Of a DNA stretch of 64,000 nt, positions 1 through 35,530 are shown piece after piece. The stretch spans positions 84,086-148,085 of the IMG/VR virus record IMGVR_UViG_3300028804_000002. One strand, written 5' to 3'. The first letter of the stretch is position 1, and the number at the start of each line of letters is the position of its first letter. This stretch comes from a virus (taxonomy: Duplodnaviria; Caudoviricetes). The notes beneath the pieces are model-generated. The model searched no databases, was not told the DNA's origin, and saw only the letters and a list, made by a program, of their open reading frames with translations. The position numbers and the translations under genes are program-made.

Positions 1-1971
1 GCATCCTTATATGGATTAGGTAACACAACACAAAATAGTTCAACTGTTTTATCTGTTAATGCACTTTCTCTCAATGCTATAGGTTCTTTAACAGTAGGAT
101 ATAGTAATGGTAGTATTCAATTAAGTGCTCCAAATGCTTTAACAACAGCCATGGCTTCAAACAGAGGTTCAGAGTTTGTTCAAGCAAATGCTGTATTTAA
201 TGGAACTAATGCTTCTGGTACAATAGCAAGTAATGCTATATCAATATCAGTAGCTGCACAATCCGCTCAAACTGGTATATCAAGTATAGTTTTATCTAAT
301 ACTACATATACATCAGGACAAATTTCCTTTAGAGATGGTAATGGTATTTCGTGGGCATCAACTACAGGTCAGGGTGTCTCTATTACTCATGGATTGCAGT
401 TTACTTCTAATACTTCAGCTATTACTTCTAATGCTTTAAATACCTCACAAAGTAGCTTATTTAGACATACTTCGCAAAATTCACAGTTACAATTTACTTC
501 ACAAATGAGTGATTATCTTGAGACTGCACAATCCTCTAAATATATACAAAACTGGAAGTTAACAGGTAATACTGCTGGGACTACATCATCAGCTCAAGGA
601 ACTGATTTATGGTTAGCTGGTGGTAATAATATTACTGTATCTGGATCATCAAATACTATTTCATTTTCTGTAGGTAATTATTTAACTACAGCACGTGCAT
701 CTACTGATGCGATAGGATTAAATACAGCTCAATCTAATGTTACTTGGACAGTTAATTCATCAGGATTATCTTTTGATGCAAGAGGATATGCTGGTACGGG
801 CACATCTGCTACTAATGCTTCTATTACATTGAATTCCAATGGATTACAAATATCTGTTGCACCAGGTGGTGGAGTTAATCCTGTAGCATCTGCTAGTAAT
901 GGTTCATTCTCATTTACTACTTTAGCGTTCTCAAATGCTAATAATGTTACATTTGGTACATCAGCGGGATCAATAATTACAGCTTCTGTAGCTGCTCCAG
1001 GAGCAGCAGCTGAAAATAACTGGTTTAATCTTATAGGAAATACTGCTGGAAATACTACAGCATCTGGATCAACAATAGCACTTTCTGGAGGTAATGGTGT
1101 AACAATTTCTGGAACAAATGGTTCTCAAATAAGAATTGATGTAAACACAGTACCAGATCAAATATTTTTAAATGGAAATACTGGTGGTACTTCTTCTTGG
1201 TCTATTTCCAATGATGCGTTTTATTTTTCCGGAGGTAATAATATTACTTTATCAGGAAGTGGTAGTACAGTTGGGATAAATGCTCCAGCTACTTCATCTT
1301 TATCTGCTACAGGTCAAGTATCTATATCAGTAAATGGTTCCACTATTTCAATAGGTGTACCAAATGCATCAACATTATCTGGATATAACGCATATGCAGA
1401 TTTACCAATGGTAGCTGGACAAGTTGGACAAGGTACTCTGCGATTTGAACCAGAGATCTTCCCCAATTTCCAATGTGATAGAATATTGCTACCTATGCAT
1501 AATACTAACTCATCAAACTCATCTGGTTCACATACCTTATCTTTTTGGGTTGGTATATACACAAGAAATGCATCTAGTTTATCATTATATAGCAGTATTT
1601 CTGCTTCAACAGCATTAACTCATTCAGGAACAGCTGGTAGCTATTCATTATATTCTGGCATAAGACATTTTACTATAGGTATGACAAATACTTTTACAGA
1701 AGGTGAATATTGGATAGGTTTTCTATCTCGTACAACTTCTGGTGGTGCAAATGGAAGTTATTCAAATATGGTAGTATCTAATGTAAACAGTGCTTTTCAG
1801 GGATTCTTTGGTTCTTCAAATAATACAACCATGCAATTTACATTAGGACAAGGAGTATATACAGTTACTACATCAGCTATGCCTGCTTCTGTTGCATTTT
1901 CACAAATAAGGGGTAGTGATTCAATGGCACTTAGGGCACCAATAATGTTATTTGCTTCATCAACTATATAA
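1..1971 (+). CDS. Tail fibre/spike-like protein, 5'-truncated by window edge
   Basis: Frame is open from base 1 (ASLYGLGNTTQ...), so the ATG at 151 is internal. Very S/T/N/G rich with a repeated motif GNTAG...LSGGNNITxSG; upstream of the lysis genes. Confidence 0.7.
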   Translation, partial: ASLYGLGNTTQNSSTVLSVNALSLNAIGSLTVGYSNGSIQLSAPNALTTAMASNRGSEFVQANAVFNGTNASGTIASNAISISVAAQSAQTGISSIVLSNTTYTSGQISFRDGNGISWASTTGQGVSITHGLQFTSNTSAITSNALNTSQSSLFRHTSQNSQLQFTSQMSDYLETAQSSKYIQNWKLTGNTAGTTSSAQGTDLWLAGGNNITVSGSSNTISFSVGNYLTTARASTDAIGLNTAQSNVTWTVNSSGLSFDARGYAGTGTSATNASITLNSNGLQISVAPGGGVNPVASASNGSFSFTTLAFSNANNVTFGTSAGSIITASVAAPGAAAENNWFNLIGNTAGNTTASGSTIALSGGNGVTISGTNGSQIRIDVNTVPDQIFLNGNTGGTSSWSISNDAFYFSGGNNITLSGSGSTVGINAPATSSLSATGQVSISVNGSTISIGVPNASTLSGYNAYADLPMVAGQVGQGTLRFEPEIFPNFQCDRILLPMHNTNSSNSSGSHTLSFWVGIYTRNASSLSLYSSISASTALTHSGTAGSYSLYSGIRHFTIGMTNTFTEGEYWIGFLSRTTSGGANGSYSNMVVSNVNSAFQGFFGSSNNTTMQFTLGQGVYTVTTSAMPASVAFSQIRGSDSMALRAPIMLFASSTI

Positions 1972-2583: not shown

Positions 2584-2691
2584 CTATGTCTAATCTGTAA
2601 TATAAGTATAGGACATGTTGAAAAACCAAATTTCTTAGAGAAAGCCAAAAAATATTTAAAATTAAATGAAACCACAAATGATTGGAATTGA
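2584..2691 (+). pseudogene. C-terminal remnant of an EndoVII-type HNH endonuclease
   Basis: Translates LCLICNISIGHVEKPNFLEKAKKYLKLNE..., matching the LCxxCNxxLG...KAxxYL C-termini of 3429 and 62443; no start codon. Confidence 0.7.
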
Positions 2692-7149: not shown

Positions 7150-7228
7150 TGGTATACAGAACGGATTCGAACCGTTCATGACAATCAGGTTTTGGAGTCC
7201 CTCATGTCCCTACATCACTAGCTGAGTG
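7150..7228 (-). tRNA. Degenerate tRNA-Trp(CCA)-like element
   Basis: T-arm aacgg-TTCGAAT-ccgtt, loop CTCCAAA and terminal CCA; acceptor and anticodon stems have mismatches. Confidence 0.45.
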
Positions 7229-7242
7229 AACTTGTAGGTCTC

Positions 7243-7529: not shown

Positions 7530-8420
7530 TTAGCTTTTAAATGGAGTATTCCAACCGGACTCAGTGTAAACATCAGAGCCAGACTTTGGCAGAAGCAGAA
7601 TTGATAACAATGGTGTTACCAATAACGTACCTACAACAGCAAGTATGTTATATACAGGGTTACTGTTGATGTAAATGTTGGTAAACAACGACAGTCCCAG
7701 GAACAGTACAGAAGCAACAGCCAAACATGTTGTAAACAACATTGTACTTTCATTTCTGTACACAAAGCCTTTAATGGCCCTGGCTACGCTGAAATCGTTA
7801 CCCCACTTATGAACCATTGCCCATTTGTCATCTGCTTTGAAGAACAAAACGGGGTCCCAATCACGAACCTGGCGGATCTTTTCAGGTTTTGGACGTACAG
7901 ACAGATTGAACATTGAAGGCGGAGCCATAATGGCAAAATCGTTTTTCAGTTGATGATCATCGAACTTAAAAGGAACATAGTTCTCTTTTGCACGAAGTTG
8001 CTCAATTGTGCAGTTTTCTCTTTCTGCACGATCAGCATCTCTGCTGTCACAGATTTTCTTCTGCATTTCTTTGATCTTAGCAGCAACTTCCACATCAAAG
8101 CTTCCAATGAAGTTAGAAGTTGGTAAGAATTTGAGCTTATATTTCATGCAAAGCTCTTTGATCTCATCAGGAGTGAATACTCTCGAGCCATAATAGTTTT
8201 CTGCTTTTTCGAGTACAATAGCAGCTCCTTGCATATCGTGAATTACTTTATTAATGGAATTACTACCAATAAGTTGTAAAATACGCTTATCTTCCAATTC
8301 TGCATAACCAAGCAAGCCTTTAACTTCGTTAAGACCAGCATCAGCTAAAATTGTATTTACTTGTGCTTTTTTGGAATCACTGGTTGCAACCAGTTCATCT
8401 TCGAGATTTACCTTTCTCAT
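7530..8420 (-). CDS. Hypothetical membrane protein (C-terminal 2 TM)
   Basis: DPVLF...VHKWGNDFS motif, two C-terminal TM helices; GC-richer 3' half. Confidence 0.7.
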   Translation of the reverse strand: MRKVNLEDELVATSDSKKAQVNTILADAGLNEVKGLLGYAELEDKRILQLIGSNSINKVIHDMQGAAIVLEKAENYYGSRVFTPDEIKELCMKYKLKFLPTSNFIGSFDVEVAAKIKEMQKKICDSRDADRAERENCTIEQLRAKENYVPFKFDDHQLKNDFAIMAPPSMFNLSVRPKPEKIRQVRDWDPVLFFKADDKWAMVHKWGNDFSVARAIKGFVYRNESTMLFTTCLAVASVLFLGLSLFTNIYINSNPVYNILAVVGTLLVTPLLSILLLPKSGSDVYTESGWNTPFKS

Positions 8421-10765: not shown

Positions 10766-10856
10766 AATTTTTAATTTAAAAAATAAGGCCCTCTAATTTT
10801 ATTTAAAGGGCCTTTCGGGTTTAAGCATCAGCGGGAAGTGCTAACAATTTAAATAG

Positions 10857-11222
10857 TGGAGGTGTCCGGGGCGAACCGGAGTCCAAACATTGATTAATAA
10901 ACCTATTCTTACAAGCTTAGTACTGTATTTCTACTGCACCGTAAGGGGCTCGAATGCCGAGCGCTCCACCAGATGGTTCAAAACCAACAATTCTGCTTTT
11001 TTGATATCGATTATGTTCCTAAGGAGATACCTACCTTGTGCAATTAAGCGGCCATTTTTACTGAGTAAGAAGAACCTGCTTTTCTGCTGGAGAAAGCCAT
11101 ATTGATGATCTTTGCTCCGTTGTTTGACGTTTTGTCATTTATTGTTTAGTGATTATTTTAAGAATCACTGACTATTGCTTGCAGATTTACCTTTCAAATG
11201 CTGTCAAAACATACACACCCCC
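10857..11222 (-). ncRNA. ssrA: tmRNA (SsrA)
   Basis: 5' GGGGGTG pairs with 3' CACCTCC-A including G3:U70; TTTGAC after the acceptor; T-arm CCGG-TTCGC-CCCGG; internal tag ORF ends ...MAA-TAA (11136-11044). Confidence 0.92.
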
Positions 11223-23579: not shown

Positions 23580-23653
23580 TGATCCGGATTGGATTCGAAC
23601 CAATGGCCCTCAGCTTAGAAGGCTGATGCTCTATCCAACTGAGCTACCGGACC
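23580..23653 (-). tRNA. tRNA-Arg(TCT)
   Basis: GGTCCGGTAGCTCAGTTGGATAGAGC...CTTCTAA...GGTTCGAATCC; full cloverleaf, CCA not encoded. Confidence 0.95.
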
Positions 23654-23700
23654 AATTATGAAATTATTTAAATTTAAATTAATAATTAATTATTCCAAAG

Positions 23701-23786
23701 TACTGATAAGAGGAATTGAACCTCCACTCGCATTACTGCGAACAGGATTTTAAGTCCTGCGTGTCTACCAGTTCCACCATATCAGC
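23701..23786 (-). tRNA. tRNA-Leu(TAA)
   Basis: GCTGATATGGTGGAACTGGTAGACAC...CTTAAAA, long variable arm, GGTTCAATTCC. Confidence 0.95.
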
Positions 23787-23789
23787 ATG

Positions 23790-23863
23790 TGGACCCACCT
23801 GGGCTCGAACCAGGGACCCGCAGATTATGAGTCTGCTGCTCTAACCGGCTGAGCTATAAGTCC
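23790..23863 (-). tRNA. tRNA with CAT anticodon, probably Ile2 (lysidine)
   Basis: GGACTTATAGCTCAG...CTCATAA; paired G1-C72 and no three consecutive G-C anticodon-stem pairs, so not fMet. Confidence 0.85.
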
Positions 23864-25555: not shown

Positions 25556-25626
25556 AGGTCACAGTTGGATTCGAGCCAAGATAAGTAGTTTTGCAAACTA
25601 CGACATAACCACTCTGACATGCGACC
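25556..25626 (-). tRNA. tRNA-Cys(GCA), slightly degenerate
   Basis: GGTCGCA/TGTGACC-T acceptor, GTAGT-TTGCAAA-ACTAC; T-loop CTCGAAT and one T-stem mismatch. Confidence 0.8.
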
Positions 25627-33976: not shown

Positions 33977-34023
33977 TGCTTTTGATTCATTTAGTTATAA
34001 AGTTGATAATTTTATACTTAGTA

Positions 34024-34067
34024 ATAAATAAAGATTAGCCCAGGATATTACTACCCCAAGCTAACCT
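34024..34067 (-). terminator. Terminator-like hairpin
   Basis: Minus strand aggttagcttgggg-tagtaata-tcctgggctaatct then ttatttatt. Confidence 0.55.
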
Positions 34068-34074
34068 AAAGAGA

Positions 34075-34311
34075 TCAATCTTCTACAAAATGAAAACTAT
34101 TTCTATGTTGAATAAGCTCATTTCTTTCAGCTTGTAATTCATCAACAAGATAGTTCCATTCAAGATTATACTGATAGTTATCAGATATATCTTCAATATC
34201 CTCAGCAGTAACACGATTAGATTGTTTAAGAGCTTTTATTTCTAACAGTTCTTTATCAATCTCATCTATTCTCTGTTGAGTCTGTTCTTCAGTGAGGTCA
34301 TTAATGGTCAT
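34075..34311 (-). CDS. Small acidic helical protein downstream of hammerhead ribozyme
   Basis: 78 aa, D/E-rich. Confidence 0.65.
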   Translation of the reverse strand: MTINDLTEEQTQQRIDEIDKELLEIKALKQSNRVTAEDIEDISDNYQYNLEWNYLVDELQAERNELIQHRNSFHFVED

Positions 34312-34322
34312 AAAATAAGTTT

Positions 34323-34371
34323 AGGTTAGACATATAATATGTTTCGACTATTTAAGTCTCATCAGTAACCT
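34323..34371 (-). ncRNA. Type I hammerhead ribozyme
   Basis: Minus strand AGGUUA-CUGAUGA-GACU(uaaau)AGUC-GAAA-CAUA(uua)UAUG-UC/UAACCU; all core nucleotides and three stems intact; GUC cleavage between 34329 and 34328. Confidence 0.92.
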
Positions 34372-34445
34372 TTGGTTATTGAAGGGTGTAATATCATCCT
34401 CACACACCTTTATTTTGATGAAAAACTAATGTTTTAGTGTTATAT

Positions 34446-35011: not shown

Positions 35012-35530
35012 TTACGTACCGAGGTCTTCTTCACCTTCTGCTCCTGCTCCTGCGTTCTGTAATATGGCTGCTGCTGCTTCTACTTCATCAGCTGCTGGTT
35101 CGAGTGGTTCAGCTGGCTTTTCTGCAGGTGCTGCAGGTGCTGCTACAGTCCGTGTGTTGGAAGCCTGTCCCAACATAACCATTGCAGCATGCTCACCCAA
35201 TTTGGCGTTACGTGCAGCTCTGATTTGTGCAGCATCTTCGATATCCATGGCGACACTTTCATTTGTGTCGTCAATCACGATTCTGTTGTTCACGGTGATT
35301 GTAAGGTTGAAGGTCTTCTGCGCTACTCTGCCTTGTGCCAGATTAGGTACAAACCAGAATAACGGCTGACCCGAGGCTGACAGTGTGAGGTCTTCAACAG
35401 CTTTACCGATGGCATCTGCCTGTGCTGCTTTGTAAGCTGCAAGCTCCTTTGCTGTGCCTGCTACTGTGTAAGTGTAAACCACTTGTCCAGTTGATTTACG
35501 ATACTTACCGTTAAGTGTTGCTTTTAACAT
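35012..35530 (-). CDS. First gene of the minus-strand block; Ala-rich protein with acidic tail
   Basis: GC-rich biased codons; beta-rich N-half; possibly ssDNA-binding-like (uncertain). Confidence 0.7.
   Translation of the reverse strand: MLKATLNGKYRKSTGQVVYTYTVAGTAKELAAYKAAQADAIGKAVEDLTLSASGQPLFWFVPNLAQGRVAQKTFNLTITVNNRIVIDDTNESVAMDIEDAAQIRAARNAKLGEHAAMVMLGQASNTRTVAAPAAPAEKPAEPLEPAADEVEAAAAILQNAGAGAEGEEDLGT

Follow-up and report, generated by a model that had tools for sequence, protein, structure and literature searches.

The window, by which we mean the whole 64,000-nucleotide stretch analysed here, belongs to a virus genome of 148,085 bp and carries, at 34371–34323 on the minus strand, a complete type I hammerhead ribozyme that can be read directly from the sequence. 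A short leader, an ORF of 78 aa and a terminator-like hairpin lie downstream of it (Table 1). The first-pass annotation had placed the element on the coding strand of a minus-strand block of genes, and this was borne out, the block being about 30 kb long; the same annotation called the downstream gene early, a label taken solely from its position. The first ORF of the block (35012–35530, minus strand) is Ala-rich and has a GC content of 48.7% in a genome of 28.6% GC. It has no match in Pfam or PHROG, a strong terminator-like hairpin (34987–34956) comes after it, and in locus L135 a homologue of this ORF stands directly upstream of a homologue of the 78-aa ORF. Elsewhere in the window are a full-length tmRNA gene (10854–11222, minus strand; Rfam 72.9 bits, E = 2e-26) and, on the same strand block as the tmRNA, four tRNA genes (23580–23863 and 25556–25626).

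Table 1. Features of the hammerhead locus and its surroundings (window coordinates)
Feature	Coordinates	Strand	Remarks
Hairpin between upstream 64-aa ORF and hammerhead	34383..34409	-	outside the cassette
Type I hammerhead ribozyme	34323..34371	-	stem I open; loops close stems II and III
Stem I, 5′ strand (6 nt)	34366..34371	-	partner is 34328-34323
Catalytic core C3-A9 (CUGAUGA)	34359..34365	-	read directly; unchanged in all orthologues and 46 family members
Stem II hairpin, 4 bp (GACU/AGUC), loop UAAAU	34346..34358	-	strands 34358-34355 and 34349-34346
G12 A13 A14 and A15.1 (GAAA)	34342..34345	-	read directly; invariant
Stem III hairpin, AU-rich, 3-nt loop	34330..34341	-	U16.1 = 34330 at the end; read directly and from the fold
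Predicted cleavage site, C17 (34329)/U1.1 (34328)	34328..34329	-	placed by the hammerhead consensus
Leader of the downstream product (17 nt)	34312..34328	-	opens with the 6-nt 3′ strand of stem I
ORF, 78 aa, acidic (pI 4.26), predicted two-helix hairpin	34075..34311	-	ATG at 34311
Segment 2-5 nt past the stop codon	34062..34070	-	complementary to product 5′ end, 34328-34320
Terminator-like hairpin (34067-34032) and U-rich tail	34022..34067	-	end of the cassette; conserved in L133

By every feature of sequence and structure that can be tested here, the element is a hammerhead. The core reads C3 U4 G5 A6 N7 G8 A9, residue H17 is C rather than G, and the pairs that adjoin the core are present (G34358–C34346 at 10.1–11.1, A34366–U34328 at 1.1–2.1). 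Stems I, II and III measure 6, 4 and 5 bp, the last formed by 34342–34338 with 34334–34330 and including the pair A15.1–U16.1, and the loop of stem II, UAAAU, fits the loop consensus UNAAU of the family described below. The three-way junction is the minimum-energy structure of the isolated 59 nt (−8.2 kcal/mol). Direct reading and this fold uphold the first-pass description of a complete hammerhead with all conserved nucleotides and three stems; the predicted cleavage between 34329 and 34328, leaving 17 nt before the ATG at 34311, had been given with correct coordinates, the site itself following from the consensus.

The fold is a modest one. Its z-score is only −1.4, stem III is its weakest part, and the isolated hammerhead, at −7.2 kcal/mol vs a family median of −13.9, ranks among the least stable members of the family while still falling inside the family range. 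Neither an outer stem I helix nor any other identifiable tertiary contact could be demonstrated at this locus. A 5-bp outer helix of the HH9 kind is possible, with one equal or better in 18% of shuffled controls, and an extended stem I, as suggested by the HH9 alignment, was rejected as evidence, such a helix not being enriched in the family (mean of 3.2 bp vs 3.4 in controls). When more flanking sequence is included, nearest-neighbour folding favours, by 2.2 to 3.1 kcal/mol, a hairpin in which the 5′ strand of stem I is tied up; in contexts of 76–151 nt the minimum-energy fold is this upstream hairpin instead of stem I, and the predicted hammerhead fraction is 0.3–3%. Such a result invites a regulatory reading, in which competing strands (34378–34374, a copy of the stem I 3′ strand, and 34070–34062, past the stop codon) would gate both cleavage and expression of the ORF. 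A gap of 2.2 kcal/mol is, however, ordinary for the family, in which the median is 1.3 kcal/mol and at least 1.5 kcal/mol is found in 46% of members, and nearest-neighbour models give no credit to the tertiary structure of a hammerhead core. The competing hairpin is, moreover, absent in two diverged orthologous loci, L133 and L137. Because the gap is typical of about half the family and the hairpin is not conserved in these loci, we do not read the upstream hairpin as a switch. The second competing strand is taken up below, and taken together we judge regulated gating to be very improbable.

Scanned for hammerheads of type I, II and III topology, the whole virus genome gave this one motif and no other, and 150 simulated genomes of the same dinucleotide content, searched with relaxed motif criteria, yielded five matches altogether (0.033 per genome). 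A covariance model (R1) built from 46 unrelated viral-contig members of the family, drawn from the matches listed and with the window left out, gives the element 64.5 bits (E = 3e-14) from end to end, model positions 1–59, and finds no further match elsewhere in the genome. Features that no part of the search had forced also agree with the model, namely the UNAAU loop II, the A on the 5′ side of stem I and the A-rich 3′ flank. A search of phage nucleotide sequences with the locus gave no match.

The Rfam hammerhead models, proposed in the first-pass annotation as a check, gave the window element sub-threshold scores only. At gathering thresholds the window is without a hammerhead match; in a local search the best models were HH9 (RF02275; 25.4 bits, E = 1.7e-4, vs a cut-off of 52) and the RAGATH-1 hammerhead (RF03152; 26.7 bits vs 56.3), and Hammerhead_1 gave 24.1 bits vs a cut-off of 34 when scored on the near-identical copy in locus L132. 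Since none of the 12 family loci tested reached an Rfam hammerhead gathering score, the miss reflects the library and not the element; and since all 12 are clear members, the gathering criterion does not discriminate for the short type I subfamily. Low Rfam scores and the unimpressive fold z-score might otherwise be taken to mean that a hammerhead consensus had arisen by chance in AT-rich DNA. The expected number of relaxed motifs, the score against an independent model and the orthologues that conserve the hammerhead with covariation have together already refuted that idea, and we give it virtually no credence.

The family itself came from a pattern search of IMG/VR in which only the core and four pairs of stem II were fixed, and which returned at least 122 matches at no fewer than 119 loci. 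Among the matches listed, stems I and III, which the pattern had left free, complete a hammerhead in 118 of 122, of which 98 are type I and 20 type III. The type I members listed are about 50 nt long; stem I has 6 bp and is always preceded by an A, loop II is UNAAU, the 3′ flank is rich in A and stem III varies. Covariation across the matches listed is strong and abundant in stems I and III (score 0.641 vs 0.109 for shuffles). Judged from these sequences, a short type I subfamily appears to be common in IMG/VR viral contigs (L003–L121). That so large and coherent a subfamily of phage hammerheads is invisible to Rfam at curated thresholds matters for annotation.

Members of this family tend to occupy a particular place between genes. 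At the 82 distinct loci among the matches listed, the hammerhead usually starts between 10 nt before and 5 nt after the stop codon of an upstream ORF on the same strand. An ATG that opens an ORF lies 21–30 nt past the cleavage site in 41% of these loci vs 5% of random positions, and the median distance from cleavage site to start codon is 29.5 nt vs 128. The window element agrees with this arrangement on the downstream side, its start codon lying 17 nt past the predicted cleavage site (family mode 21–30 nt), and departs from it on the upstream side, with 74 nt and a hairpin, not about 10 nt, between the upstream stop codon and the ribozyme. We considered whether one downstream gene family might be common to the whole subfamily and rejected this; among the matches listed the downstream genes are diverse and mostly small, with 68 proteins falling into 54 clusters. 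A known function was found for none of 10 sampled proteins flanking family members, and any Pfam or PHROG match for only one of the 10. On the upstream side, a conserved family of proteins of about 72 aa, for which neither Pfam nor PHROG has a match, stops right at the hammerhead in 12 loci among the matches listed (L005, L015, L027, L054, L063, L076, L079, L083, L094, L110, L118 and L119) and is a candidate hammerhead-associated gene family. Two further loci are worth recording for their arrangement. In L040 a hammerhead of the subfamily (2601–2664, plus strand) is surrounded by an array of 20 tRNA genes, with about 9 nt between its cleavage site and the tRNA that follows, and in L074 two family hammerheads with identical stem I sequences (7184–7229 and 7612–7657, plus strand) surround a single ORF of 109 aa.

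The 78-aa ORF has 13 homologues in public assemblies, and these allow the ribozyme to be followed at orthologous loci. The same hammerhead is found 17–20 nt before the start codon of the ORF homologue in L132 (protein identity 95%, hammerhead score 64.4 bits), in L133/L134 (83%, 56.3 bits) and in L137–L140 (70%, 41.3 bits). Aligned with the window, these make four versions of the element, in which 98.3% of cells remain paired and five pairs, distributed over all three helices, have changed on both sides. Pair 10.2/11.2 of stem II, for instance, is A-U in the window, G-C in L133 and U-A in L137; pair 2.1/1.1 of stem I has gone from A-U to U-A in L137; and stem III has been rebuilt in both L133 and L137, with three of its pairs showing two-sided changes across the orthologues. 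That each of the three stems carries compensatory changes is good evidence for selection on the fold.

Not every homologue of the ORF has kept the ribozyme. No hammerhead was found at the homologous loci L144/L145, L146, L135/L136, L141/L142, L147 or L001, nor was there a replacement ribozyme from Rfam at L135, L141 or L001 at E ≤ 0.5. In L144–L146 the leader is preserved as far as the cleavage-site position and the catalytic core is gone; a local alignment in L144 (p ~0.05) is suggestive, at most, of a decayed hammerhead remnant. The distribution of presence and absence among the homologues indicates that the ribozyme is ancestral to part of the ORF clade and was repeatedly lost, and with several homologous ORFs standing without one, the ribozyme is dispensable for the gene. 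The closest whole-genome relative of the phage (portal protein 64% identical, genome of 147.9 kb) has no hammerhead, no homologue of the 78-aa ORF and no PhoH; the absence of ribozyme and ORF alike is what would be expected of an accessory cassette. As to synteny in related phages, another comparison called for in the first-pass annotation, the hammerhead is kept before the ORF homologues in L132, L133/L134 and L137–L140, and the closest complete relative, having neither element, offers no synteny for comparison. A separate situation is seen in L143, whose ORF homologue is 66% identical to that of the window. There, two paralogous type III hammerheads (about 770–830 and 1207–1268, plus strand) share a 7-bp stem I, a UAUU loop and an additional U that separates A9 from G10.1; 21 nt lie between the second and the ORF homologue, and the other is about 440 nt further upstream, so that a hammerhead of different topology occupies the same place relative to the gene.

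Sister lineages that retain a leader and lack a catalytic core (L144/L145 and L146), with the possible remnant in L144, raise the question of whether the window element is itself a relic, an inherited motif that no longer cleaves at a useful rate in an AT-rich genome. The weak stem III, the fold energy of −7.2 kcal/mol and the competing upstream hairpin would all be in keeping with decay. Against this, all nucleotides of the core are intact, the deficit in stability is within the range of the family, and four diverged orthologues have kept every stem paired by compensatory change, a pattern that speaks for purifying selection acting on the fold. We consider an inactive or decaying ribozyme unlikely.

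Comparison with L133 also sets the limits of what has been inherited together. Nucleotide similarity between the window and L133 starts abruptly near 34373, at the ribozyme, and ends near 34030, just past the terminator-like hairpin and its U tract; the flanks outside these points are at background identity and unrelated between the two. The terminator hairpin carries a compensatory change in L133, and the same architecture recurs in L137. Since homology with L133 comprises the hammerhead, the leader, the ORF and the terminator hairpin and nothing more, the ribozyme heads a promoterless gene cassette. Upstream, the neighbours differ. In the window and in L132 there is an ORF for a 64-aa membrane protein and then a hairpin, and in L133 and L137 there is a hairpin with a U tract that ends 9–12 nt before the ribozyme and that, read by eye, looks like an intrinsic terminator. 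The unit has therefore been placed behind different transcription units. The Bacteroidota-type −7 promoter motif (TANNTTTG) was not enriched, with 106 occurrences found vs 109 expected; TANNTTTG does not occur on the minus strand from 35688 to the ribozyme, and a scan for promoters of the sigma-70 type was at chance level.

The same boundaries bear on the possibility that selection acts on the upstream RNA, with cleavage serving as a substitute for termination by giving that RNA a defined and structured 3′ end with a cyclic phosphate, and the new 5′ end of the ORF being a by-product. Family hammerheads do usually abut the stop codon of an upstream ORF among the matches listed, and type I cleavage leaves nearly the whole folded ribozyme on the upstream fragment. 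At this locus, though, the block of homology begins at the ribozyme, the upstream genes are different in the window, L133 and L137, and the last two already have a terminator-like hairpin and U tract 9–12 nt upstream. For these reasons we think it very unlikely that the upstream RNA is the object of selection here.

The leader is A/U-rich, has no Shine-Dalgarno sequence and is conserved even at loci without a ribozyme. The genome at large has the same character, for among 117 scanned ORFs of at least 120 aa a Shine-Dalgarno-like motif lies upstream of 2.6%, vs a background of 8.7%, and positions −14 to −10 of the same ORFs are A-rich. A 17-nt A/U-rich leader without a Shine-Dalgarno sequence is therefore normal for this genome. 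The depletion of Shine-Dalgarno motifs and the A-rich positions point to a host of the Bacteroidota type. A distant relationship links the portal protein to those of Cellulophaga, Flavobacterium and crAss-like phages, and the host of the phage is probably a member of the Bacteroidota. By analogy with what is known of that phylum, the leader would fit a mode of initiation that depends on an unstructured leader. The ORF is indeed acidic, as the first-pass annotation had it (pI in Table 1). The further proposal that it encodes an anti-defence protein found no support, the ORF having no Pfam or PHROG family and no informative structural match; its structure model (pLDDT 82) is a generic two-helix hairpin, and a structure search returned only generic helical hairpins, the best at E = 0.48.

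We think it likely that the element is a cis-acting, self-cleaving type I hammerhead that forms the 5′ edge of a promoterless cassette, made up of ribozyme, 17-nt leader, 78-aa ORF and terminator hairpin, and that it cleaves read-through transcripts and so insulates the message of the cassette. Transcription would arrive from upstream on the minus strand, reading through into the cassette. The 49-nt three-way junction would then fold, and the 2′-OH of C17 (34329) would attack the adjacent phosphate. The upstream RNA would keep the compact, folded ribozyme and end in a 2′,3′-cyclic phosphate, and the downstream mRNA would begin with a 5′-OH at U34328. That the downstream product should bear a 5′-OH, as the first-pass annotation stated, follows from hammerhead chemistry. 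Resistance of that product to decay, which the same annotation held possible, found no support and would depend on the host; in the glmS case a 5′-OH product is a target of RNase J1. The AU-rich, 6-bp stem I would melt afterwards, and the ORF would be left with a short, defined, unstructured and A/U-rich leader suited to initiation without a Shine-Dalgarno sequence, whatever happened to lie upstream. By removing the upstream RNA along with most of itself, the ribozyme would insulate the message from its genomic context, and any effect in the cell would presumably be felt in translation or in the stability of the mRNA. The first-pass proposal that the transcript is processed before a small ORF is in keeping with the spacing of start codons in the family (41% of loci vs 5%) and with the standard reading of phage hammerheads (PMC3088659); the part of that proposal concerning early expression goes back to gene position only.

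One property of the cassette goes beyond this scheme. The first 8–12 nt of the predicted cleavage product are complementary to a segment just past the stop codon of the ORF, which overlaps the base of the terminator stem. L132 retains the complementarity, L133 does so with one pair turned into G·U, and L137 keeps it by a double change, U to A in the leader and A to U in the partner. It also persists in L144 and L146, which have no ribozyme, and is lengthened there to 12 bp. Shuffling gives p-values of 0.006–0.06 per locus. As a general trait of the hammerhead family the complementarity was rejected, with p < 0.05 in only 4.8% of 63 loci among the matches listed, and on present comparisons it appears specific to the cassette of the 78-aa ORF. 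It could mean that the two ends of the mRNA pair once cleavage has taken place, that the segment competes for the leader, or that the cassette has its borders here at the level of DNA.

It is here that the second strand of the proposed switch must be considered, the post-stop segment covarying as it does with the leader. This segment is transcribed some 260 nt after the ribozyme, however, and since it persists at loci that lack a ribozyme, gating the ribozyme cannot be its only purpose. A different arrangement, which we put forward tentatively and regard as unlikely, is a mobile promoterless cassette with two states, in which stem I would first lock the opening nucleotides of the leader and the freed 5′-OH end (34328–34320) would then pair with 34070–34062 to form a panhandle. 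If this were true, closure of the panhandle would set the stability or the translation of a monocistronic mRNA, and the ribozyme would act as the trigger for pairing of the ends of an mRNA. We know of no description of ribozyme-triggered pairing of mRNA ends for hammerheads. The closest resemblance is to the mRNAs of hok-type toxins, which also carry a small ORF and in which the extreme 5′ end is complementary to a 3′ segment next to the terminator. The ORF of the window differs in being acidic and soluble and not a membrane toxin, the predicted pairing is only 8–12 bp, and no antisense RNA was seen at the window locus.

Hammerheads in comparable intergenic positions are already well established in phages, and by itself the element is a feature of the expected kind. 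Those of phages and prophages flank genes and cleave polycistronic RNA in vitro, and processing of long transcripts has been proposed for them; the flanking genes are not constant, and some of the ribozymes come immediately ahead of an accessory gene, ardA being one example (Perreault et al. 2011, PMC3088659). The window element resembles these in its consensus core, in its location on the coding strand and in its place between small genes of phage or mobile character. It differs in being a single ribozyme in 148 kb and not part of a cluster, in its short type I form of about 50 nt (6-bp stem I, UNAAU loop, A flanks), and in that it demonstrably travels with the downstream ORF and terminator as a block. 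The hammerhead of the haloarchaeal viruses HF1/HF2, HHphage, lies 13 nt before an early gene, and the 5′ end of a transcript has been mapped to within 3 nt of where it cleaves (PMC3088659). The two are alike in their distance to the start codon (13 nt vs 17 nt), in a presumed early region and in belonging to tailed viruses. The HF1/HF2 ribozyme, however, has atypical insertions in its core and requires high salt, and it precedes a helicase gene that heads a polycistron (PMC3088659), whereas the window ribozyme has a fully canonical core and precedes a 78-aa ORF. Of the Rfam families, RAGATH-1 (RF03152) and HH9 (RF02275) score best and share the core, reaching about half the scores needed for gathering. 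Stem II is reduced to about 1 bp in RAGATH-1, which also carries an additional 5′ hairpin, where the window has 4 bp in stem II. In HH9 stem I is longer and contains an internal loop, and the possible outer helix that would correspond to it in the window appears no better than chance.

What the locus adds to these precedents is modest: a cassette linkage that can be demonstrated, natural variants that have lost the ribozyme, and a covarying complementarity between 5′ and 3′ ends. What the thousands of hammerheads in bacteria and phages do biologically is still for the most part inferred, and the locus offers a clean natural case in which a ribozyme is inherited with one small ORF and a terminator across unrelated genomic contexts. 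In a phage that does without Shine-Dalgarno sequences, in a probable Bacteroidota host, the structure of the leader should matter most for translation. The nearest functional parallel may be an engineered one. In insulators of the RiboJ type, a hammerhead placed just before a coding sequence strips off the 5′ RNA contributed by the context and leaves a constant leader; RiboJ itself is an engineered type III hammerhead from a satellite RNA, with a hairpin that exposes the ribosome binding site. The behaviour of the cassette matches that of RiboJ, with the difference that the window ribozyme is a natural type I hammerhead that would leave only 17 unstructured nucleotides, and the lineages with and without it provide matched natural controls for a role as context insulator at accessory genes.
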